32,000 nucleotides of DNA, from contig BAAFHK010000002.1 in the NCBI GenBank assembly GCA_042852035.1, positions 210,001 to 242,000 on the forward strand, given 5' to 3'. Under the pieces are notes generated by a model. It did no database searches. It was not told the origin of the DNA and was given only the letters and a program-made list of their open reading frames with translations. This document shows, in pieces, positions 3,928 through 23,038 of the stretch. The DNA is from Candidatus Saccharimonadota bacterium. Lineage in GTDB: Bacteria > Patescibacteriota > Gracilibacteria > BD1-5 > UBA2023. The position numbers were made by a program, and so were the translations under genes. Positions within the stretch are counted from its first letter, which is position 1. Every line of letters starts with the position of its first letter.

Positions 3928-4881
3928 ATGATTACCGAAAGAATATCATCTTCACCCTCATTCTGGCAAAGTAATATTTGGGAAGCAATACTTCATGATT
4001 CATGACAAACAAGAGATGTGGAGGTTATTACCTATGGACAATACGGTATAATGGTTGAATATCGCAGTATTGGACTCTGATTCGAGTGAGCATTCTCACT
4101 TGGGGTTGACATGGGTCAGTATACAGAGGAATTTCTTCAGAGAGTACGAGATGAACTAGCCTCTAAGTGAGTGATATTCTGGCAAATCGAAGAATATTAC
4201 CCAGATTGAGTCGATCCTACTCAAGCACATCAAGTGGTTTATGGGAGAAATTTTATCGAGCCATGGACTCGAGTCCTCGATCTCAGAAAAACAGAAGAAG
4301 AACTTATGGCAGAAATGCATGAAAAGGGAAGATATAATATTCGACTCGCATGGAAACGTGGAGTCTTAATAGAATGGGTGCGTCCGATTGCTGAGAACAT
4401 AGACATATGGATGAAGCTCCTTTCTGAAACAACAGAAAGAGATGATTTTGCTCATAATTCTCATGAGTACTATATTTCATTTCTCAGAAATATAACTGAT
4501 GCGAATGCATGATGAATGGTATTCGCATCATATGAATGAAAAATTATTGCCGCATGAGTCTTTATCTTTCATCATGGGACAGCTTTATATTACTATGGGG
4601 CATCTACATCAGACCCTGAAATGCGTAAGCACATGGCACCATATCTTATACAGTGGGAAGGCATAAGGGAGGGGAAGCTCAGGGGGTGTCATACCTATGA
4701 TTTTCTTTGAGTCTGTCTCCCCGAAGATGCCGAGCACCATCTTGCAGGAGTATCGAGTTTTAAAGAAAAATTTGGCTGAAAAATAATTATGGTAGGAGGT
4801 AAATCCCTCTATGTGCTCTCTAGTTTAAAATTTCTCTTCTTTAAAATAATTCGCAAAATGAAAAAGGGTCTTCACAAATAA
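3928..4881 (+). CDS. FemAB-family peptidoglycan interpeptide-bridge aminoacyltransferase
   Basis: 317 aa with TGA=Gly; track ORF 4234..4512 is a fragment of it. Motifs are GRYNIRLAWKRG, FIFHHGTALYYYGAS and YDFLG(TGA)V. It ends in TAA. Confidence 0.8.
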
Positions 4882-4905
4882 AAATCCCAGAGTTCCTGGG
4901 ATTTT
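4881..4905. terminator. Bidirectional hairpin terminator between converging genes
   Basis: A perfect 10-bp stem, aaaatcccag (4881-4890) / ctgggatttt (4896-4905), with loop agttc. A/T runs flank it on both sides. Confidence 0.65.
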
Positions 4906-4906
4906 T

Positions 4907-5269
4907 CTATGAATGACTATATGTAGCCATAATGATTTCTTCCCTGAGAACCGGGCCGAGGTCGATTAGGGTATTTTCGATGGGGCGTATATCATCAGGA
5001 TCCAGAGGGTCGATATAGTTTTTAAAGGTTCTTTCAAAATTTCCTATCGAAATAGAGTATTTTTTTTCTTCGTATAGAATTGTGGTTGCTAGATTTTTAA
5101 AAATAACCTCTACAGCATCATCAAGTGCAACAATCTCAATAGTGAATTCAAGCGGTGAAGTAAACTTAATATCATCAAGTGCGCCATCAAAAACCTCTCC
5201 AGAAAAAGAGAAGCTTCTCGAATCTCCCGAATAACTCGATAAGAGATCTCCGACAGGAATGATAAACAT
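4907..5269 (-). CDS. DUF177 / YceD-like protein
   Basis: The ORF ends in TAG at 4907-4909. The C-terminal segment ENTLIDLGPVLREEIIMA is typical of DUF177. I prefer the ATG at 5269 because the upstream TPR gene stops at 5274. The GTG at 5311 (the track start) is an alternative. Confidence 0.55.
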   Translation of the reverse strand: MFIIPVGDLLSSYSGDSRSFSFSGEVFDGALDDIKFTSPLEFTIEIVALDDAVEVIFKNLATTILYEEKKYSISIGNFERTFKNYIDPLDPDDIRPIENTLIDLGPVLREEIIMATYSHS

Positions 5270-5273
5270 TGAA

Positions 5274-5906
5274 TTAGATTTCACTATTTTTGAGGGTGTC
5301 AACAAGGTCACTTTGTCAAAGGCGTGCGAGCACTAGACGTGCTTCACTTTCTTGACCAGCTGCGATAAGCGCAACAGAAAGGTCATTTATTACCATTGGT
5401 TCATCTGGAGCAAGAATATGTGCTCTACGAAGGAGTGAGAGTCATTTCATAAGATCTCACTTCATGACATGAGCCCAGCCGAGATTTCGTAAAATTTCTG
5501 CATTATTTGGCATGAGTCAATTTGCTTTCGAGAGTATCTCAATAGCTTTTTCAAACTCTCATCGGGCAGTTGCAAGATATCCATCAAGATACATGCCAGT
5601 TCCACTATCAGGATGAAGTTCTCGAGCTACACTGAGTACTTCAGATGCTTTTTCTATATTTCCTTCAAATAGGTAGATATCCGCAAGTTCCTCATAAAGC
5701 CGATAATCATCTGTGTGGATTTTTAGTGCTTCGAGCGAGATTTCTTTTGCCTTCGGATAATCATTTTCTGACTTTGATGTCTCGATTTTTTCGATTATTT
5801 TTTGTATATCCATGTCGGGATTATATTTTCTTTTTTCTACATTGCAAGGGAAGTAGAAATTTTGACAAATTATTTCCAATACTTTTCTGCTAGTTTTTTC
5901 ATTCAT
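5274..5906 (-). CDS. TPR-repeat protein
   Basis: 210 aa with TGA=Gly, with repeated A/Y/L helical hairpins ([24 protein letters not shown]...; [18 protein letters not shown]). A purine-rich tract (agaaggaaa) lies upstream of ATG 5906. An alternative ATG at 5813 would avoid overlapping the rlmN tail. Confidence 0.65.
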
Positions 5907-6970
5907 TTTCCTTCTTCTTTCGCGAGGGATTTTCCTTCTTCCTTAAGGGCAAGTTGACCACATGCGGCATCTATATCATCCCCCATTGTATGTCGAACTG
6001 TAGAAGGGATTCCTGCATCTTCAAGAGTACTTTGAAATTTCTTTATCATAATCTTCGAAGTTGGTTGGAATCCATTTCCCATAATTCCTTCTCAGGGATT
6101 ATAAGGAATAAAGTTTACATGGGCAAGCTTTCCCTTAAGAAGGTTTGCGAGTTCATGAGCATATTCTGGTCGGTCAGTAACTCATGCTATCATGATATAT
6201 TCATAAAAAATTCTTTTATTTGTCTTTCATACATATTCATCAAGAGCCTTCATAAGTTCATCTATAGGATAAGTATTTTCAACTGGCATAATACGCTTTC
6301 GAGCTTCATCATTCGGGGCATGAAGAGAGATAGCGAGGGAAATCTGAGGAAAATCTTCTGCAAGACGAAGAATTCCAGGAACAATTCCACAAGTCGAAAT
6401 AGTTATACGACGATTTGAGAGGTCAATTTTTTTCTGAGCGCTCGCGATATAAATAGATTCTTTGACATTTTCGTAGTTTAGCATTGGCTCCCCCATTCCC
6501 ATATAGACAACATTTCGAATTTTTTTATCTTCTTTTGCGAGTAAAAGATTTGCAATCATGATCTGATCAATAATCTCATAAAATTCAAGATTTCTTATGA
6601 GTCCAAGTTTTCCTGTAGCGCAAAATGAACAAGCCATAGGGCATCCTGCTTGAGAGCTAACACAGAGGGTGTTGCGCCCAGAAAGATGACGCATGATTAC
6701 GGCTTCTATCATCTTTTCATCACTTGTTCGAAGAAGAAGTTTTGTTGTTTGTCCATCGTCACTCGTAACTTCTGAGTGAATCTGAAGAGAGTTGTAAAAA
6801 CAATTTTCTAAAAGAATCTCTCGTATTTCTTTTGGGAGAGTATCGATTTTCTCGAAATCAGTTATAAGATTCTTATAGATAGCATTTTCTATTTGTGCAT
6901 ACCTAAATTTTTTATGACCATTTTTTTCGAGGATTGCTATGATGTTTTTTTCGTCGTGAATAGAGAACAT
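5870..6970 (-). CDS. rlmN: 23S rRNA/tRNA m2A methyltransferase RlmN (radical SAM)
   Basis: Motifs are [18 protein letters not shown] (radical-SAM CxxxCxxC), MGMGEP and TISTCG. With TGA=Gly the frame passes TGA at 6227 and at 5903 and ends at TAA 5870-5872. An alternative TTG start lies at 7003. Confidence 0.9.
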
Positions 6971-8868: not shown

Positions 8869-9420
8869 TTATTTTTTTGTTTTTACGCTGGCGAATTCAA
8901 TCTCAACTGGAGTATCACGACCAAGGAGATTAATCATAATTTTTACCATACCCTTTGCAGAATTTACTTCAATAATCTTTCCTTCACTGCCTTCAAAAGG
9001 ACCATTTTTTACCGTTACATAATCACCAACTTGCATATCAGTTTTGTATTCTTCGCTTTTTTCAGTGAGGATACCTTTGAGCTTATCAAGTTCTTCTCCA
9101 CTTACAGGTACTGGGACTGTACCCGCACCAAGAAATCCTGTTACATTCGGTGTATTTCTTACGATATACCAAGATTCATTGGTTACAATCATGTTAACAA
9201 GGATATAACCAGGGAAGATATTCTTTTTTCGAGAAATCTTTTTACCACCCGCTCGAACAGAAACTGAGTCATGGGTTGGAACAAATACATCGAGAATATA
9301 ATTTTCGAGACCAAAAGCCTCTCTTCGTTGCATAAGTGATTGCCGTACATTTTCTTCGGTTCCAGAAATAACACGGATAACGTACCACTCACCAAGAGGT
9401 TTTGTTGAGAATTCAAACAT
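8869..9420 (-). CDS. nusG: Transcription termination/antitermination factor NusG
   Basis: An intact 183-aa ORF with an NGN domain (WYVIRVISGTEENV) and a KOW domain (GDYVTVKNGPFEGSEGKIIEV). It ends in TAA. Confidence 0.95.
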   Translation of the reverse strand: MFEFSTKPLGEWYVIRVISGTEENVRQSLMQRREAFGLENYILDVFVPTHDSVSVRAGGKKISRKKNIFPGYILVNMIVTNESWYIVRNTPNVTGFLGAGTVPVPVSGEELDKLKGILTEKSEEYKTDMQVGDYVTVKNGPFEGSEGKIIEVNSAKGMVKIMINLLGRDTPVEIEFASVKTKK

Positions 9421-9444: not shown

Positions 9445-9807
9445 TTATTTGTTAGCTCCACTCACTGAAAGTTCAGTTTTTTCTGGACTTGAAGAAGAGA
9501 CAGGATTTACTTCTACTTTTGCCCCAGAGAGAGCATTTTTTCTTCTTTCGATTTCATTCTTCAGATTTTCCATATCTTGTTCATTTACAGTACTTTCTCC
9601 TGACACTGTTGATGAAACAACTGCATCATGAGGAAATATATCTCGAACGCCCTTAAGTCAAAATCGAATCCCATATCCTACAAGGGATAGAAGTGTCGCC
9701 ATAATGATAATGGTTCCTACCGTATAGAGCATATATTTTTTGCTTTCAGCATTTGTTGGCCAGACTACATGATCGAGCTCTTCAAGAGATTTTTTAATAA
9801 ATGACAT
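9445..9807 (-). CDS. secE: Preprotein translocase subunit SecE with a C-terminal extension of about 70 aa
   Basis: It starts MSFIKKSLEELDHVVWPT and has a single TM (YTVGTIIIMATLLSLVGYGI). The frame reads through TGA 9658-9660 to TAA 9445-9447. Confidence 0.8.
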
Positions 9808-9837: not shown

Positions 9838-9865
9838 ATTATATAGAAATAGCACTAAGAGTCAA
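9838..9865 (-). promoter_or_regulatory. Candidate sigma70-type promoter of secE-nusG
   Basis: On the minus strand, TTGACT (plus 9860-9865), a 16-nt spacer, then TATAAT (plus 9838-9843). It lies 31 nt upstream of the secE ATG. Confidence 0.5.
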
Positions 9866-9871
9866 TTTCCA

Positions 9872-9894
9872 TATTAAAATCCCCTCTCGGGGAT
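9872..9894 (-). terminator. Rho-independent terminator upstream of the secE promoter
   Basis: The stem is atcccc (9879-9884) / ggggat (9889-9894) with loop tctc. On the minus strand it is followed by UUUUAAUAU. Confidence 0.5.
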
Positions 9895-10150
9895 GTCAAC
9901 GTGGTGATAATAGTAATTTTTTTAGAAAAAACAAGGGAATTTTCTGGAGCTCCTTGGTGGGAGCAATCTTCGAACTTTTATAGAGAATTTCGATAGGGTA
10001 ACAAAAGAATATTGAGAGAATTTTTAGTATATAGATCTATCTGAGTTTAGGAGAATTTGAAAATTACTAGAGTTATTGTGTATTTTAAGGGAAAGTTTGT
10101 TTGATTCTTTATTTATAATAATCCCATGAAGTAACTCTAACTTCTTAAAT

Positions 10151-13100
10151 CTATAAGCCTAATTTATCTTCTATAAATTTGAATATAGGTATAAATCAGT
10201 CAAATAAATCATTTCATAATTCTTTAGTATTTCCTAGCATTCATTTTCAAAGCTCTTCTATAAGTGTCGCAAAATTACATTTTAACTTATCTCATCAGAT
10301 TTCAAGGTAGCTAGAAGAGTTTGGTAAATTAATCTTTCTAAATAATGGACTTTCACAAAATTTATAATCTTTATCAAAGACTTTATTTAATGAATCCTTT
10401 TTTCAATAAAATAAATGCTCTATTGTTAACTGAGCCTTCTCTTGTAGATGAATGAATCAGCTACTATCATCTTGGATTTGAGGATTAATTTTTACTTGGT
10501 ATTGAATCTCATGATGTAAATCTTCAAAAGGTAAGGTTAATATATAGAAATCTAAACTTGTATGCTTTTTATAAATTCATTCATAACTTAATTCTTTTCA
10601 CCATTCCTTCTCTTTAAATCAGATTTTATATCTATTTGGATTATCTATTGAACTAAAACCCTCAAAATCGAAATCAAAAAGTCAGAACCTTATATTGACT
10701 CTTTGATACTCTTGAATATCAGTATACATTTGCTTAAGTATTCAGCTTGCTCATCATCAAATAAGGATACGTAATCAAAATTTCTTTATTTTTCACTGAA
10801 ATTCTAAAACCTCTTTCGCAATTTTAACTATTTGATAATCTGTCTTTCATTCTACATATAGAATAGTATTTAAAGAGGTATTTTCAATATATGACTCTAA
10901 AGAGCTAATCTTTGTAATAAGTTCATTTCTGACTTCTTTTTCCTTAACAAGACTCTCATTTATTTTATTAAATTTATCTTTCCAAGATAATGCCTCGGTT
11001 ATTAACTCATCTTTTAATTTTACCTTAAATTTCTCCTTTATTTTAGGCAGATATTTATATTCGAAGTTCTCGGTTGAGCGTCATTTATTTATGCTGACGA
11101 GATTTATAATAACCCGATACAGTCATTTATTTCATATTGATAAAAAATATCTTGTACAAGCATCTTGTATGTAATCGTAATAGTGGTAGTTTCGTTTTGT
11201 AAATGAATCTTTAAGAAGCTCTAGAAATGCTTTCTTAAATGATTTATCTTTTAAGTATCAGAATGGATCTATAAAGTTCCTTTCACTTGTTATTTCGTTT
11301 TCAAAGTCTGAAGGGGAATATACCACTAATTCTGGGTGATCAAATTTCATCTCAACTCAATGAAGATTCATAATCTTACTTATTCTCCATTGAGTAGCCT
11401 CATTATCTTGAAAATGCTTCACTAATATCTTATTAGATATATCTGATAGTGGATTTTCTGTAATTATTCAATCATTTCTATCTTTAAAATAAGAAAATAA
11501 ATCCTTTATATCTTCATAGGTAAAAAATGGAATTTTTCCAGATTTCTTTCGAGGTTGTCTATATATAAAATTTAGTAACTCCTCTTTATTATACTGAGAT
11601 ATCTCCTCATCTAGAAGTATCGATTTCAGAGTTTTTGTAACATCATTAACGTATGTTTTTGTCTTGAATTGTGCAATTTGTTTTTCTAACAAGTGAATAA
11701 AATTACCAGTCATATGGTACTTTAATCCATCAGTTCTTGATCAGTCATAAACAGAAATAATATATCTTATTGTTTTAGGGTTTAGCTTATATCATTTATC
11801 TAAAAGCTCCATTATAATGCTTAGTCACTCGCTATAAGCGAAAGGCAGATAAGAGTATATTTTATCTTTAAACTTTCATAGATCAATTCACAATGATTTT
11901 CATACAATCAAGGTGGTCTCAAAGTAGTGTTGTACATACCAATCACTTGTGTATTGTGAGGATCAATTAATTTCTCTTTTTTCAAAAATTAATTCAGCTT
12001 TTTTAGGATCTAAAGTTTTATCTTCAAGAAATTCAATTATCTTATCTTTTAATAATTTTGTTTGTTTTGTATTAAATAATTCTTTTTCAGTGTGATACTT
12101 ATAGACTAAAAAATAAAAGTTATTATATCATTTTAAATATTTAAATCCAAGTTCTATTTCTTCAAATCTTTTCTTATTTCTTTCTTCTAGCTCTTTATCA
12201 TTCTTTTCTTTGTAATGCTTTCTTGTTTCCTCAATATTAGCGATTTCATCTTTTAGATTTTTTTCAAATTCTATTAGTAATCCATCTTTTATATCAGAGG
12301 AAATGCTACTTTGATATTTAATATATTCATATAATGGAAAGTCAATTCTCCATTGATTTTTTTGTTTTTCATTTTCACAGAAACTTACTATTTCCTCCTT
12401 GGTTAAAAGCTTAGAAAGAATAAACTGCAAATGAGTGTCGTAAGAAAGTAAAATTTCTGCTCTATCTTCGTTTTCTGGTATTATATCTGAAAGATTGAGT
12501 CATAAGATTTGTGTAAAATAATTACTACCACTACTTTGTAGGTCTTGTAACATATAATCAACAATTGATGCTTCTTTTAATAGGCTACTAAAGCCATCAT
12601 ATGGTCTAGATAGTAAGCAAAGCTTCTTGAAGATTCCTTTAATGATTTCAAATATTACCTCAAGATAAGCATCATTACCCTTTATTCGGTCCAGAAATAA
12701 TCGAGCACTTTCTTTTTCTATAGACAATACAGCATCAATTTGCGTTTTTCAAATTATCCCATTAGTGTTTATGCTAATTTCTTTAGAAATTTCTCGAAGT
12801 AGCCCTAATAATAAATTTTCTGGAATTTTAGAAAAATACTTATTAAAATCCCTATGCATAGAATAAGGATAAATAGTTTTTTCGTAGGTTAATTTGAAAG
12901 CTTTTAGTAGTTCGCTATAGTTCTCATTTTCTCAAAATATCTTTATAAAAAAATATCACCATATATGTTCATATGATTCTTCTATCGCTCTATTGAACCA
13001 TTCTGTAAAGTAATCAATATTTTTTTGTCGAGTAGCGTATATTATCTCTAGGGCATCAATTCTAACATTATCAGAAGAATGACTATCTAATATTCATTCC

Positions 13101-13411
13101 ATTCTTGAGCATATTAAACTTAGTGTCTCTTGATTTAAGATTTTATTATTTTCAATCAACTTACATAGTAGATTTAAAAGATTATACGTATCAATATAAG
13201 TTTCTTTACTTATCGAATCAGTAAGCGTTTCTAAAATAAAGTTAGTATCTTCATTTTCATTGAACCTTAAAATTAATATTTTAACTTCATTTTCTTTATC
13301 AGAGAAAGGTCAAAAAAGTTCTATTTTATCTTTTTGTATAAGAATGAATTCTTGTTGAAATTTAGAGGGCATATATATGATTTTATCGTTTAATACATTG
13401 TAGATTTTCAT
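10151..13411 (-). CDS. Orphan 1,086-aa protein with a C-terminal TOPRIM/DUF4435-like motif triad
   Basis: I checked every codon of this frame by hand from ATG 13409-13411 to TAG 10151-10153. There is no TAA/TAG, and there are about 39 in-frame TGA. An in-frame TAA lies just upstream at 13418-13420. Track fragments 11468..11713, 12128..12430 and 12500..12727 all share the frame. The motifs are LYVEG(TGA)KTD (10838-10855), IGGGASG (10742-10762) and FDFDFEG (10658-10675). Confidence 0.8.
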
Positions 13412-13547
13412 ACAATATTACAAGTCTAATTATTGCAATATTCAAATAGTCTATATAATAAAATTCTTCTGAAAGTCTTAGTTTCACTCCTGGTTTTAAT
13501 GGCGCCATTCTATCAAATTTATTTTGCTTATAATGATACTATTAACT

Positions 13548-13745
13548 CTATGAAAACAATTCAATCATTTTCATCTGATACTTGCTATATGCAAGATACA
13601 GACTGTCGAGATATTCTTGTACCAAGTGCTGGTCGTTCTGCTGGTTGCCCTTGAGGGCTAAAAGCACAAAGTCATTAGTATATCTAGGAGAATTATGATA
13701 TAAGGAGAGACCATAGTGTGGCTCATAACCACAGACCAGCACCAT
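13548..13745 (-). CDS. Doubtful small ORF (65 aa) in the GC-richer intergenic patch
   Basis: It runs from ATG 13745 to TAG 13548-13550 (MVLVCGYEPHYGLSLYHNSPRYTNDFVLLALKG...). It overlaps an equally plausible 59-codon plus-strand ORF (13499..13678). The patch may be RNA rather than coding. Confidence 0.2.
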   Translation of the reverse strand: MVLVCGYEPHYGLSLYHNSPRYTNDFVLLALKGNQQNDQHLVQEYLDSLYLAYSKYQMKMIELFS

Positions 13746-13801
13746 AAAGCTTAAAATATTTATCAACTATAAATGATAGATATTTTGTTATTAACTTTTA
13801 T

Positions 13802-14371
13802 TTACTTCTTACAAGAATGAGTAGATATGATATATTTATATCATTTTCAATATGTTTTTTCGCAATATATATTTGCTTTAGTGAGATCATATGTGATAAA
13901 TTTTGTACTTTTTATTGAATAAGAAATTTGGTTATCTATGAAAAAGTCCCCCTTTTCTAATTCATTATTATACATAAGATTCACTACAAATTTCTTTCAC
14001 TTATAGTTTTTTGGTAAGGTAAATTTATCAACTGTAATTTCAGCAATAGTAGGAATTGAATAGCGATCATTGTATTGAATTTTCATTATTCATTTTTTTA
14101 CAGATAGGATATTAATATAAGTTGAATAGGCTTTATTTGTAAACATTCAATTTTCCCACTGATGCCCCATCATTGATAGTCTACACCATTGCTCTGGAGT
14201 ATACCATTTACTTCATCAGAATTCGGCATATATCATCTTTTGTATTTTGATACAATTAGGATAAACCTCTGTCTGATCAAATATTCATTCTCAATTTTTA
14301 GCATATGAATCAGTATGAATCATCGCAGACGATAAAGAAATAATCAGAAAGTATATAATTCTTTTAAACAT
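13802..14371 (-). CDS. Small secreted hypothetical protein (189 aa, 4 Cys)
   Basis: Code-25 ORF from ATG 14369-14371 to TAA 13802-13804, absent from the track because of about 10 TGA. It has a signal-peptide-like N-terminus (MFKRIIYFLIISLSSAMIHTDSYA). I recognise no family. Confidence 0.6.
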
Positions 14372-14376
14372 AGAAA

Positions 14377-14400
14377 TAGCGTTATAAAAGTATAACGCTA
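14377..14400. repeat. Perfect 10-bp inverted repeat (palindrome) with a 4-nt spacer
   Basis: The sequence is tagcgttata aaag tataacgcta. It lies 6 nt from the start codon of the secreted-protein gene. Confidence 0.7.
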
Positions 14401-14416
14401 AAAAGTATTTTGTGAT

Positions 14417-14558
14417 GTTTTAGCAAACAAAAGGGCAACCTAAGTGTCCAATGTTCGCTAAAACGTATCTTTTCTAACCTTCAAAAGGAATGAAAAGGGG
14501 GACAACAATAAGTTGCCCTTCTCTTTCTTGAAAGTTAGAAAACACAGATACATTTTAG
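14417..14558 (+). other. Nested and mutually exclusive helices; candidate ncRNA, leader or recombination-site region
   Basis: Helices are gttttagc (14417-14424) / gctaaaac (14457-14464); ttttctaac (14470-14478) / gttagaaaa (14534-14542); and ttcaa (14480-14484) / ttgaa (14528-14532). In addition, gttgccctt (14512-14520) can pair perfectly with aagggcaac (14431-14439) or imperfectly with aagggggacaac (14495-14506). A 22-codon mini-ORF lies at 14490..14558. Confidence 0.35.
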
Positions 14559-14656
14559 CTGAAATATTGTACTCAAAACTTGAATTTTTGCAATCCACGA
14601 CCATTGTCTTTTTCCTAATAAAAGTATAATTCTACTTATGTGTTCCTTATATTTTG

Positions 14657-14756
14657 CTTTTCTCTTTTCTTTTTAATGTGGTGTTGAAAGGAAGGAGAAA
14701 AGGAAGAAGTAAAAACATATTAAATTTCGTCTATACGGACGACTAACCAACACCAC
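14657..14756 (+). promoter_or_regulatory. Structured 5' leader of the recombinase gene (pyrimidine/purine hairpin plus possible pseudoknot)
   Basis: A 16-bp stem pairs 14657-14672 (cttttctcttttcttt) with 14687-14702, including two G-U pairs that exist only in the plus-strand RNA. Loop segment gtggtgttg (14678-14686) is perfectly complementary to caacaccac (14748-14756), 3 nt before the ATG. A candidate -10 TATAAT lies at 14625-14630. Confidence 0.4.
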
Positions 14757-14759
14757 AGT

Positions 14760-16880
14760 ATGACTACACCACAAGTCAAAACCTCTAAGCTTAAAACGCC
14801 AATATTCGCCTATCTAAGACGAAGTACCAAAGATAAACAAGAGGTATCATTAGAAAATCAAGCTGATAACATCGATTTGATAATAAAGGATAATTGATTT
14901 TCAAAGGATGATGTAGTATTTTTTGAGGAGTCTCGTTCTGCTTATGACTGAATTAAACAGAGATGAACAAGTGCTATTGTTCGAAAAAGAATTGAGTTTG
15001 ATAAAATGCTAAAAGCAATAGATCAGTCAAATATTCCTTGTATTATTCTGGTAAGAGACTCTTCTCGTTTATCAAGAAATCAAATAGATAATATTGAAAT
15101 TCAAAAAAGACTTTTTGGTATATATGGTAATCAAAATAAAATTCAAAAGATAATATTCTACTGATGAGAATTTTGGACAAAAGATAGTGACAGAATTATT
15201 GTTGATAACTGTTTAGCAAAGAATTATCACGAAAGTATTACTACTTGAGCAAGGTCGCAAAATGGCGTTATCGCACAGTTGAGACGAGGATATTTTGTTT
15301 ATAATCCACCATTCTGACTGAATAAGATAAAAAAATGAACAGCAGTATACTTAGAGAGAAATGACAAAATATCCTTTGTTAAAAGAGCTTTCGAAATGAA
15401 GATTGAATGATATAACCATAAAAAGATTTGTGAATACCTACAAAAAGAAGGTTGATATAAGATTGACGATAAGCATTTAACAGAAAGAATCTTCAATAAT
15501 ACTATCTATATCTGAACATATACTCATCCAACTGTCTGAGAGATTTTTGAGTGACTTCAATTTCTTGAATGAGAACCTCCAATTAGTAAGGAATTATGGA
15601 ACAAAACGCAAAATGTTTTATGAAAAAAGAAGTCTCGATATGGGGAACTTCAAGAATGAGATATTTTGTGAGATAAATTGAGGACGCCAAATGGTAGAAG
15701 AATGAGCCGATATTTTGCTAAAGATATATATATCCAATACACAAATGCTATAGAGAAAATATATATTGCGGAGAGAGCTATATTGGAATGATTTATAGAT
15801 CAAATCAAAATTATACTTGAATCAATAATGTTTCAGCATTTTTTGATATATGCGAACGATGTAAGAAAAGCTAAGATTGATACCAAAATTAGAAAAGAAG
15901 ATGCTATAAAACGATGAAAGAAAGCATTAAAAGAAATGTGAAAATCCATTTCGGATTTTCACAAGCCAGTTATTGATAATGAACTAGGGTATTCTTGAGA
16001 AGAAAAAGAAAAACTGAAAGCAGAATTGGAAGAAAGTTTTCTAAAAGAATTATGAGAATGATTGATACTCGATGAGATGATTGCCAAGGAGGATGGCAAG
16101 GGGGATGATTGGTTTTTAGAGGCTTATGATATGTGGAAGTCTGCATCTTATAAGACGTTTGCTGAGTGAGTTGAGCAGAAAGAGTCAATTAATTTGCACT
16201 CACTTTATGATGTCCAAAAAGAAGAGATCCGTAAACTGCAAAAAGCAAAACTTCATTTAGAAGAAGTCAATAATAACGCAACTAGCTTAGTAGCAGACGG
16301 AACTATTTCGAAAGAAAATTATACAAAACTTATAGAAAAGAATGCAATGGAAGTATCTTTGATTGATGAAAGAATAGCTGATGCAGAAAAAACTTGAGAA
16401 TTACAACAATATTTGGACCGATTGCCAGAGGTTCTTCAAAAAACTTTTGAACTAGCTAGTAGAGTAGACCAGAAAAAGGAAATCAAGGATATGAGGGATG
16501 AAATAATCAAGCTTATACAAATTACTACTTTCGAACTCGAAATTAATAACAAAAAAGAGCTTAAAATAAAGCTCTATGATGTGCTTACATCACTTTTTTT
16601 TTGAAATAAGTCCCTAATGGAGCCACTGGCGGGAATCGAACCCGCGACCGCGCCCTTACCATGGGCGTGCTCTACCACTGAGCCACAGTGGCAAAAAATA
16701 TTTAAATTGCGCTGAATTTGAATAAAAACAAGTGTTTCCTCTTCAAACTTCATATTTTCAATATTTTCACCGACTCATAAATTATATGAGCTCACTGAGT
16801 ATAAAGTTTTCTCGAAAAATTCAAGCTTCAGTAGGAAGAATTTTATCTTCAGAAATTCTTATAAGTCATCAGGCCTGTAG
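14760..16880 (+). CDS. Large serine recombinase (integrase); the recognisable protein ends near 16601 and the literal code-25 frame continues to TAG 16878-16880
   Basis: The resolvase catalytic domain reads FAYLRRS(14823-14825)TKDKQ ... ILVRDSSRLSRN. The recombinase domain reads RRGYFVYNPPFG(TGA)LNK and AFEMKIEGYNHKKICEYLQKEG. A long C-terminal coiled coil follows. There are about 25 in-frame TGA. Track ORFs 16194..16397 and 16413..16604 are in the same frame. Confidence 0.85.
16618..16692 (-). tRNA. tRNA-Thr (anticodon GGU), CCA encoded
   Basis: It folds as a cloverleaf by hand. The acceptor stem is GCCACTG/CAGTGGC, the D stem GCTC/GAGC, the anticodon stem CGCCC/GGGCG with loop A-T-GGT-A-A, and the T arm GCGGG-TTCGATT-CCCGC. 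The discriminator is T, followed by CCA. Confidence 0.9.
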
Positions 16881-18612: not shown

Positions 18613-19021
18613 TACTCTCGAAAAGGGATAATAAGCCGGATTCTGTACCTCGATGCATATCTATCTAGGCTATGGATTACTCCATAACTCAAGCGGAGTA
18701 TATCAAGATTGGCTGCTCTAGGGCATTATCAATTCTGATACCATTCTCCTTGCATCAGAGAGGGTTTTCCACCCCTTACGGGTTCATCTGTAGCCCTTCC
18801 TTTTTACTTATGAATATTCATAAAATCAAAAGTGAGACACCAAATGACTTTTCACCTTTTACTAGAAAAAATTCTAGTGAGTATAGTCTCTGTGGCACTT
18901 TCCGTACTCTACATTTCATTTATATTGTAGAGCCAAAGCCGTTAGCTTTTCTCCTCCTAGAGTGATGTCCAGACTTTCCTCTCATAGAGTATGAGCATGC
19001 ATCTGTCCCTTTTTGAGAGTA
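18613..19021 (-). ncRNA. rnpB: RNase P RNA (bacterial)
   Basis: Both universally conserved P4 strands are present on the minus strand: GAGGAAAGUCUGGAC (plus 18967-18981) and ACAGAAUCCGGCUUAU (plus 18631-18646). The terminal P1 helix pairs UACUCUCAAAAAGGGA with UCCCUUUUCGAGAGUA (plus 19006-19021 / 18613-18628). The 550-nt gap has no ORF. Confidence 0.8.
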
Positions 19022-22950: not shown

Positions 22951-23038
22951 TGGCGGAGAGAGGGGGATTCGAACCCCCGGTGCATCACTGCACACACCCC
23001 TTCCAAGGGTGCACGATCGACCACTCTGACATCTCTCC
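22951..23038 (-). tRNA. tRNA-Ser (anticodon GGA), long variable arm, CCA encoded
   Basis: The acceptor stem is GGAGAGA/TCTCTCC. The anticodon stem is CACCC/GGGTG with loop T-T-GGA-A-G. The long variable arm is TGTGCAGTGATGCACC. The T arm is GGGGG-TTCGAAT-CCCCC. Confidence 0.9.

Follow-up and report, generated by a model that had tools for sequence, protein, structure and literature searches.

An island of 6,673 bp situated at the 3′ end of a tRNA-Thr gene in a Gracilibacteria genome (Candidatus Saccharimonadota bacterium, assembly GCA_042852035.1) is very probably a small, non-self-transmissible integrative element that was inserted by its own large serine recombinase (LSR) and that represents a family present in Gracilibacteria and related Patescibacteria. 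It lies in a stretch of 32,000 nucleotides (contig BAAFHK010000002.1, positions 210,001 to 242,000 of the forward strand; hereafter the window). Integration of this element divides the recombinase gene: as read from the sequence, the circular (attP) form would encode a protein of 646 residues that ends in a conserved 25-residue tail, ..NLRTF[IV]EN[FY]DR[VI]..YG..F, and integration leaves a gene of 621 codons that continues into tRNA-antisense sequence. The remainder of the element comprises a conserved chassis and an exchangeable cargo slot, which is occupied in the window by an orphan protein of 1086 residues. The coordinates of all features are collected in Table 1.

Boundaries of the island and its empty site

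A look-up of exact protein matches to NusG identified a 2.5-kb contig of assembly GCA_964463675.1 (L001) with an unoccupied site; here and below, the labels L001 to L022 denote contigs or loci from other assemblies and P-numbers (P0004 and so on) denote database proteins. Positions 267-421 of L001, which contain tRNA-Thr and approximately 80 bp upstream of it, align to window positions 16769-16618, and positions 416-2519, which contain secE-nusG and their upstream region, align to window positions 9950-7848 at 98.2% identity, such that tRNA-Thr abuts the secE upstream region directly with no island between them. The junction itself is located within well-matching sequence. L001 416-421 aligns equally to window positions 9950-9945 and 16623-16618, and these 6 bp, TGGAGC on the plus strand, are the complement of the encoded CCA of the tRNA together with the discriminator and the final base of its acceptor stem. 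Since the two alignments overlap by these 6 bp, the island corresponds to positions 9945-16617. A first-pass annotation, made from the letters of this DNA, had proposed an insertion between tRNA-Thr and secE at positions 9895-16617. The insertion is borne out by the unoccupied site in a near-identical strain and by the 6-bp core common to both junctions, and the right edge was placed correctly, but the left edge lies at 9945 or 9951, approximately 50 bp away from the proposed one, because the sequence at 9895-9944 is also found in the empty site and is therefore host DNA.

The element shows the hallmarks of a tRNA island: it abuts the tRNA at its 3′ end, it is flanked by a direct repeat, an integrase is encoded at its boundary and the tRNA is regenerated. 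The tRNA is left intact because these 6 bp are supplied by the element as well. When the island ends were searched for long direct repeats of the tRNA, nothing beyond chance matches was returned, and the true 6-bp repeat is detectable only by comparison with the empty site. The element contains only three open reading frames (ORFs), with no structural PHROG or Pfam match and no capsid, tail, terminase or lysis gene among them.

The composition of the island also differs from that of its surroundings. Its GC content is 28.4%, compared with 36-37% in the flanks, so that the drop noted in the first-pass annotation exists but is smaller than the one given there (from about 43% to about 22%). Reading of the window with the standard code yields only short ORFs, and long genes emerge when TGA is read as a sense codon. 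TGA occurs at invariant glycines in the P-loop of Adk, the LSGGQ motif of an ABC transporter and topoisomerase I (TopA), and the genetic code of the host is therefore code 25 (TGA = Gly). The heavy sense use of TGA attributed to the island genes was confirmed, in that TGA accounts for 73% of glycine codons in the island and 33% in 14 flanking genes. With 74 in-frame TGA codons in the element, its expression would be impossible outside code-25 hosts.

Recombinases 87-88% identical to that of the window are located at tRNA-Thr in two other samples (L003 and L021). L003 belongs to a syntenic genome in which the housekeeping genes show 67-76% nucleotide identity to the window, whereas the stretch from the chassis gene p189 through the adjoining spacer to the recombinase shows 85% identity and the 83 bp at the far end show 88%. 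The first-pass annotation had named the presence of the same block with a host-like composition in all relatives as evidence against an insertion; the opposite was observed, the chassis being more similar between these genomes (85-88%) than the host genes are.

A recombinase gene split by its own integration

The recombinase has the Pfam domains Resolvase (PF00239, E = 1e-7) and Recombinase (PF07508, E = 1.2e-9, residues 202-287) and matches PHROG 95 "integrase" (E = 1e-25, residues 4-424). Alignment A1 shows no variation in the catalytic motifs YLRRST..Q and SRLSRN, with Y18, R20, S22, Q27, S102, R103 and R106 conserved throughout. By domain content the protein is thus assigned to the large serine recombinases, but as a remote member. 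Divergent recombinases that share the tail are only 28-41% identical overall, the best sequence match in the PDB is the TnpX catalytic domain (E = 0.004), and matches to GenBank phages reach at most 27% identity and cover the N-terminal 46% only. There is no match to PF13408 (Zn_ribbon_recom), and inspection of A1 showed no cysteines in the corresponding aligned block, after which comes a long, charged segment that is apparently helical.

In its integrated form, the ORF runs past the island edge and through the antisense of the tRNA to position 16880 (706 aa), reading ..SLFFGNKSLME up to the edge and PLAGIEPAT.. beyond it. The last 25 codons of the recombinase (..NLRTFIENFDRVTKEYGENF, followed by a stop codon at 10025-10027) are located 6.6 kb away at the opposite end of the island, and this tail exon is in frame with codon 620/621 only after excision. 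Joining of the island ends in silico yields ..NKSLME followed by LLGGSNLRTFIENFDRVTKEYGENF and the stop codon, with the same motif as in relatives whose gene is contiguous. The first-pass annotation had correctly reported a large serine recombinase, as the domains show, and had missed that its ORF extends past the island and is split. NCBI annotates the protein as HHAS10_09040 with 706 aa. Approximately 85-88 residues of this product derive from the host, namely from the antisense of the tRNA and of the 3′ end of a neighboring radical-SAM gene (window 16617-16880), and such an annotation is a predictable artefact for this recombinase family in genomes without TGA stops.

Two kinds of C-terminus are found in the alignment: P0004 and P0005 enter the antisense of tRNA-Cys, and P0006, P0007 and P0008 carry the conserved motif [LV]RTF[IV]EN[YF]DRI contiguously with the gene. 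Contiguous copies were found in five loci (L005, L019, L006, L007 and L020), three of which are on circular contigs. L005 and L019, from different datasets, are circular permutations of one 8,490-bp circle, L006 (3.6 kb) and L007 (3.9 kb) have k-1 terminal overlaps, and the copy in L020 ends in ..NIRTFIENYDRVKEKYGKDF and a stop codon. Complete split copies number six (the window, L003, L021, L008, L009 and L014) and are all situated at tRNA-Thr or tRNA-Cys. According to a motif scan and later searches, each split copy has exactly one tail exon, which is located at the far end on the strand of the recombinase. The L008 island measures just ~2.95 kb, and L014 is part of a 1.27-Mb chromosome-level metagenome-assembled genome (MAG).

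Several features indicate that the tail is translated and not merely conserved DNA. In the window, L003, L021, L008 and L009, it consists of 25 aa after a glutamate encoded by the core and ends in Phe-stop; in L014, it diverges after KYG and continues through a TGA. Across seven loci found via protein homology, not via a DNA pattern, the summed entropy at codon positions 1, 2 and 3 was 4.57, 1.97 and 6.27, respectively. The conserved glycine of the "YG" in the tail is encoded by TGA in five members and by GGN in the others, and the homology between islands ends at the stop codon of the tail. It is because of this codon-position pattern, the TGA/GGN exchange and the end of homology at the stop codon that translation is favored. 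The tail is also the best-conserved stretch between these divergent recombinases.

The frame across the junction is set by a run of nine T residues. The run of L003 has eight (11793-11800), and its recombinase stops (..EISP) exactly at the core. The possibility that the read-through into the tRNA is a frameshift error in this run, with L003 as the reference, was considered and rejected, as the window has the same run as L021 (T9) and a frame consistent with those of L004, L008 and L009.

Further observations concern other loci. The circle represented by L019 (JFJP01042496.1) and L005 (SRR15016858) encodes a ResIII helicase, the full-length recombinase, DUF5681 and Bro-N proteins, and the end of the L019 contig coincides exactly with the att core, a break that the co-existence of integrated and circular forms in the sample would predict. 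In L010 (16806-18620), an LSR of a different clade with a Zn_ribbon_recom domain also enters tRNA antisense, here that of tRNA-Trp; these lineages may therefore commonly have ORF-spanning attachment (att) sites at the 3′ ends of tRNAs. Two tail-exon remnants located 1.2 kb apart on a Peribacteria MAG contig (L012, 159-179 and 1401-1421, minus strand) suggest tandem accretion or decay of islands at one site.

Attachment sites and a possible built-in switch

The core is TGGAGC at tRNA-Thr and TGGAGG at tRNA-Cys. A motif that corresponds to the T-loop in antisense, TCGAAC, is separated from the core by 12 nt in the tRNA arm and by 19 nt in the tail-side arm of the element; this spacing was obtained by direct reading of the junctions in the window and was seen in every member that a pattern scan matched. 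Identity between the sites is confined to the 6-bp core and the arms are unequal in geometry, as in the short att sites of LSRs, in which the outer recognition motif generally lies further from the core in attP half-sites than in attB half-sites. The arm on the host side, 3′ of the tRNA, is not conserved among hosts. Within the final ~250 nt of the recombinase gene, two or three additional copies of TCGAAC are present (window, L004, L005, L007 and L008), in codons for ..TFEL.. or ..VEL.., and these extra copies could be a coincidence of repeated peptide motifs or accessory binding sites.

The 3′ end of the recombinase gene also contains a palindrome, GAGCTT-N6-AAGCTC, which lies exactly 61 nt upstream of the core in all seven loci that have the recombinase-side core on the same contig and is conserved as DNA in the window, L003, L004, L005, L007, L008, L009, L014, L020, L021 and L022. 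On the strand of the tRNA, it forms a hairpin followed by a T-run, approximately 45 nt beyond the end of the tRNA. Beyond the far junction, on its host side, the window, L003, L008, L009, L014 and L022 have hairpins with T-runs that resemble native tRNA terminators, and these would therefore have been displaced by integration. The palindrome may act as a replacement terminator for the tRNA transcript after the native one has been displaced.

It is tempting to speculate that the recombinase is a self-editing switch, in which integration strips the 25-residue C-terminal peptide from the enzyme and excision restores it. Recombination would thereby rewrite the C-terminus, and the tail-plus and tail-minus enzymes would differ in activity or direction: the tail-plus form would perform integration, and the tail-minus form would permit excision or silence the enzyme. 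Gain and loss of the tail would substitute for a separate recombination directionality factor (RDF), and the two forms would have different or even opposite directional competence, with the same 3′ segment doubling as the replacement terminator of the tRNA. This proposal is tentative, and its being wrong is the likelier outcome.

A conserved chassis around an exchangeable cargo slot

The recombinase, a structured spacer, p189 and the tail exon constitute a chassis, in which the cargo is exchangeable. Both L003 and L021 cease to be homologous to the window at 13789 on one side and 10026 on the other, and the sequence between has been swapped wholesale. The cargo of L003 is an unrelated 776-aa protein with no family match, and that of L021 comprises an HpaII-type restriction endonuclease of a type II restriction-modification (R-M) system (PADLOC, 7e-76), a C5 methyltransferase, an S24 peptidase and a DUF1508 protein. 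In more distant chassis at tRNA-Cys, a type I R-M system (L004) or PemK together with an AbiLi/AriA/Old-like ATPase (L022; PADLOC, 3e-21) is found. Thus, as in mobile defence islands, known defence systems fill the same slot in sister elements.

The product of p189 has four cluster representatives among 5.8e9 proteins, all of which adjoin this recombinase family, and no match in Pfam, PADLOC, NCBIfam or PHROGs. It had been described as a secreted 189-aa protein in the first-pass annotation; the ORF is present, and its N-terminal segment is signal-like, which makes secretion a prediction from the residues. The non-coding region between p189 and the recombinase, which had been called structured, does fold far better than shuffled sequences (z = -7.4 on either strand over the 388 bp), whereas the so-called GC-richer patch at 13412-13801 has a GC content of just 31% and weak structure (z of -1.8 to -2.5). 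The spacer is the best-conserved part of the chassis, with 90-94% identity to L003 and L021 compared with 82-89% for the flanking coding sequences. A core of ~150 nt is also found in L022, L010/L011 and the L007 circle (63-86% identity), a set that includes different recombinase clades, and displays the pattern AAAGGGCAAYC ... GACAAY-loop-RTTGCCCTT, nested in longer helices. Three compensatory pairs were observed among approximately four distinct sequences, which is too few to call an RNA. The spacer matches no Rfam family, and neither its pattern nor the tail DNA pattern has a match in IMG/VR.

L003 contains an extra 2.5 kb (3935-6453) between the secE promoter and the island, with a C-terminal fragment of an RHS core plus toxin, a DUF7674 protein and two small ORFs; an earlier insertion at this tRNA or a toxin/immunity cassette there could account for it.

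The 1086-residue cargo protein

The slot of the window contains a single protein of 1086 aa (HHAS10_09000, P0009). The full-length AlphaFold2 model is poor, with a predicted local distance difference test score (pLDDT) of 47. The C-terminal domain (aa 835-1086, nt 10154-10909) is modeled at a pLDDT of 83.5 and starts with beta-alpha-beta-alpha-beta; E854, D858, D913 and E998 are invariant and D915 is nearly so in a 15-sequence alignment (A4, columns E20, D24, D79, E164 and D81). An invariant glutamate that ends strand 1 and a DxD that ends strand 3 are shared with the OLD-family and DUF4435/DUF3226 TOPRIM nucleases (PARIS AriB, Gabija GajA and Old); unlike them, the 1086-aa protein has no ABC ATPase domain, no match at a curated threshold and no TOPRIM match in Foldseek. 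The first-pass annotation had listed a giant TOPRIM-like ORF. The ORF is indeed present, but the label goes back to motifs and sub-threshold matches, and a filing as a TOPRIM nuclease was rejected, as Foldseek returned generic flavodoxin-like folds only. The protein is probably a defence effector with an acidic-motif alpha/beta domain that, judged by these residues, is TOPRIM-like at most.

Close homologs are limited to two among 5.8 billion clusters. One is the sole cargo of a recombinase island at tRNA-Cys (L009). The other (L010) directly follows HamA and HamB of a Hachiman system (PADLOC, 9e-38 and 1e-96), and an LSR of another clade, which enters tRNA-Trp, bounds that island; this adjacency to Hachiman in another island points to a role of the protein in defence. 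A profile search of 1.84 billion representatives found 56 relatives at E < 1e-3. The distant relatives (P0025 to P0039) share the central helical region and have N-terminal NACHT/STAND or AAA NTPase modules; the P-loop NACHT/STAND module is absent from P0009 and is found only in these relatives. Their C-terminus (..DGKRTDF..GPIVIEVKL..) looks PD-(D/E)xK-like and would replace the E/DxD domain, and such a swap of effectors among relatives is a pattern typical of defence proteins.

Other results weigh against this assignment. The 1086-aa protein has no match in PADLOC, Pfam, NCBIfam or PHROGs. When the model of its C-terminal domain was compared with the PDB by Foldseek, nothing fell below E = 0.05, the best match (0.057) being to unrelated flavodoxin-like folds and none to TOPRIM. 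Sequence matches to TOPRIM are below threshold: 0.038 for PDB 1t6t, 0.007 for OLD-like_TOPRIM (PF20469) in two of the 15 sequences and 3e-4 for DUF3226 (PF11536) in one of the 15. On balance, the evidence tilts slightly toward a cargo that defends against phage, as an anti-phage or abortive-infection effector.

Alternative explanations

The delimitation of the island depends on a single empty-site contig from a MAG, the first 266 bp of which are relatively GC-rich (47.7%) and do not match the window; its 5′ end may be chimeric or reflect that the strain is rearranged upstream of tRNA-Thr. These facts, which tell against an insertion, would suit a native low-GC block, with L001 representing a deletion or an assembly artefact. 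Such a history is highly improbable, however, because the junction falls exactly at the 6-bp core beside a site-specific recombinase, the same architecture is seen in six split copies at tRNA-Thr and tRNA-Cys, and composition and codon usage differ from those of the host. Also adverse to a functional element is that the 29-nt pattern of its attP junction has no match in metagenome contigs of the JGI; with no circular junction of this copy in those contigs, its current activity is unproven. The island could be the remnant of a decayed prophage or island, fixed and immobile, whose tRNA-reading ORF is an artefact of a code without TGA stops: none of the three ORFs is a replication, packaging or transfer gene, and the integrated ORF does extend approximately 85-88 codons into host sequence. 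Against a fossil speak the presence or absence of the island between strains that are 98% identical, the intact catalytic motifs and the intact tail exon, which is in frame via the T9 as in L021, as well as a chassis more conserved than the host backbone and the existence of related members as circles; a fossil is quite unlikely.

The split gene itself might be incidental if the tail were kept only as DNA, as an outer arm of attP or another protein-binding site, and the recombinase ended near the core in both states. A stretch of the tail DNA, AATCTTCGAACTTTT, is nearly invariant in nucleotides and could be such an att-arm binding site, TCGAAC is also present in the tRNA arm, and L003, whose recombinase stops at the core, keeps the tail sequence. 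The T8 of L003, which would prevent restoration of the tail on excision, could stem from slippage, from a frameshift mutation or from an error in assembly. This explanation is nevertheless unlikely, given that third codon positions vary most and second positions least, that TGA and GGN are exchanged at a conserved glycine, and that a tail of 25 aa ending in F-stop occurs in all five split copies with the standard ending. Moreover, the homology extends ~80 bp from the core to the stop codon, well beyond the 40-50 bp given for att sites of large serine integrases (10.1101/2025.05.02.651858), and the tail is the best-conserved stretch between otherwise dissimilar recombinases. There is also the view that the element is a phage satellite or a phage-derived module, in which the 1086-aa protein serves the element's own cycle (replication, partition or helper interference) and not the defence of the host. 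The small circles on which contiguous relatives reside do encode phage-like proteins (Bro-N, DUF5681 and a ResIII helicase in L005; GP3_package in L006), and the structured spacer could serve as an origin or for packaging. Yet the 1086-aa protein is not part of the chassis, being replaced by R-M or ATPase systems in sister islands; it has a homolog beside Hachiman in an island with a different recombinase clade; and it matches no PHROG, nor does the tail pattern occur in IMG/VR. A satellite role is thus rather improbable. None of these explanations accounts at once for the presence/absence polymorphism, the signal at the codon level and the pattern of cargo, and an integrative island inserted by its own LSR is the reading retained here.

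Relation to known systems

Like phiC31, Bxb1, A118/LI and TnpX, the recombinase combines an N-terminal resolvase catalytic domain and a Recombinase domain in a single protein, and it uses short att sites with a few bp of identity at the crossover; as in LSRs of phages and mobile elements, the arm of the element is longer than that of the host (TCGAAC at 19 nt compared with 12 nt). It differs from the phiC31-type LSRs in targeting the 3′ CCA end of a tRNA instead of a protein-coding gene, in having attP within the 3′ end of its own ORF and in its very distant sequence. A large survey of LSRs analyzed protein-coding targets and never mentions tRNA (PMC10083194). In a literature search of an incomplete library, no serine integrase with attP in its own ORF or split by its own integration was found, and none that targets tRNA CCA ends.

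The logic of the split gene has its counterparts among other integrases. In the Myxococcus phage Mx8, attP is reportedly located in the integrase gene (IntP/IntX), an arrangement said to have been interpreted as regulation of integrase activity. Archaeal integrases of the SSV1 type have attP within their own gene, which integration rewrites or splits. As in both, the crossover in the window element falls inside the integrase coding sequence and alters its product, so that integrated and free forms encode different proteins. By contrast, Mx8 and SSV1 employ tyrosine recombinases with other att logic, whereas a serine recombinase here loses a 25-aa C-terminal peptide; the likeness is one of logic, not of family. 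That a C-terminal addition can set the direction of a serine integrase is reportedly shown by the engineered integrase-RDF fusions of Olorunniji et al. 2017 (PMC5737554). Those fusions are artificial and contain a whole RDF protein, whereas the change described here is natural and made by recombination itself, with its effect on direction being a proposal. Control of directionality by a tail was not described for serine integrases in the literature searched.

Closest in lifestyle are the tycheposons of Prochlorococcus, of which 910 of 937 use tyrosine recombinases and many have replication modules (10.1101/2020.12.28.424599). They likewise are small cargo elements at tRNA genes of streamlined genomes, with modular cargo and an integrase at one of their ends, and some of them resemble phage-inducible chromosomal islands (10.1101/2020.12.28.424599). 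Unlike them, the chassis of the window has a serine recombinase, lacks a replication gene and needs code 25. In defence hotspots of the P2/P4 type and in defence islands, conserved flanks bracket a slot of interchangeable defence systems. Pipolins have been reported as defence platforms (PMC11551731). The arrangement of conserved modules around an exchangeable slot is common to the P2/P4 hotspots, the pipolins and the present family, but the slot here lies between p189 and a detached tail exon, in an element of 3-12 kb from bacteria of the Candidate Phyla Radiation (CPR).

Features of the window

Outside the island, tRNA-Thr, secE and nusG are all on the minus strand, as the first-pass annotation had it, and both the TTGACT-16-TATAAT promoter (11 of 12 positions matched) and the hairpin were recovered at the places claimed for them. 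To the right of the island, the window contains a bacterial class A RNase P RNA (18616-19014, 167 bits) and tRNA-Ser(GGA) (22951-23038). An Rfam scan of the island, judged by E-value, gave nothing real besides the tRNA.

Table 1. Coordinates of the island, its host surroundings and its attachment junctions (window positions unless a locus is named)
Feature	Position	Strand	Basis or remark
tRNA-Thr(GGT), integration target	16618-16692	-	ARAGORN and Rfam; junction comparison with empty site L001
Core copy 1, tRNA-side junction: last 6 nt of tRNA-Thr (GCTCCA, including encoded CCA)	16618-16623	-	L001 comparison
Core copy 2, secE-side junction: TGGAGC	9945-9950	+	Island equivalently 9951-16623
Large serine recombinase, codons 1-621 up to core	14760-16623	+	Pfam, PHROG, alignment
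T9 run setting the frame across the junction	16594-16602	+	L021 also T9
Detached 3′ tail exon, (M)E-LLGGSNLRTFIENFDRVTKEYGENF-stop	9945-10027	+	Motif scan, contiguous relatives, codon pattern; homology ends at stop
Palindrome AGAGCTT-N6-AAGCTCT followed by T-run, in recombinase 3′ end	16556-16575	-	Terminator scan
Structured intergenic region, 388 bp	14372-14759		Folding compared with shuffled controls; conserved core ~14415-14565
Copies of the spacer element	L003 9668-9759; L021 2128-2218; L022 2054-2145; L010 13349-13438; L011 7647-7736; L007 3652-3747		
p189, chassis protein with N-terminal signal-like segment	13802-14371	-	ORF; signal from sequence only
Cargo slot, swapped wholesale	10028-13788		Breaks of homology with L003 and L021
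1086-aa orphan cargo protein HHAS10_09000 (P0009)	10151-13411	-	Helical N-terminal/middle region, coiled coil, C-terminal alpha/beta domain
Host features outside the island	9838-9894	-	Native hairpin 3′ of tRNA, 9894-9879; secE promoter match, 9865-9838; also in empty site L001
secE	9445-9807	-	
nusG	8869-9420	-	
Predicted attP junction of the window element			ATAAGTCCCTAATGGAGCTCCTTGGTGGG
Predicted attP junction, extended form			...GAAATAAGTCCCTAATGGAGCTCCTTGGTGGGAGCAATCTTCGAAC
attB junction			...GGGAATTTTCTGGAGCCACTGGCGGGAATCGAACCC

Implications

Mobile elements of the CPR/Patescibacteria, especially in code-25 lineages, have barely been described, and the present family is apparently active and has known att sites; the island is real and precisely delimited, and the self-split integrase could be a feature of general interest. 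The attB site belongs to a universal and highly conserved class of sequence, namely the T-arm, acceptor stem and CCA end of a tRNA, and the family could be developed into a genetic tool for organisms that lack any. Serine integrases rank among the main tools of genome engineering; their unidirectionality normally needs a separate RDF, and a C-terminus rewritten by the enzyme itself is a testable candidate for built-in control. If the switch proved true, an element of only 3-7 kb would control integration versus excision without a separate directionality factor. Furthermore, the chassis marks a slot for defence genes and thereby nominates the 776-aa protein of L003 and the 1086-aa family, in which a central module is common with STAND NTPases and effector domains are exchanged, as candidate new defence systems.

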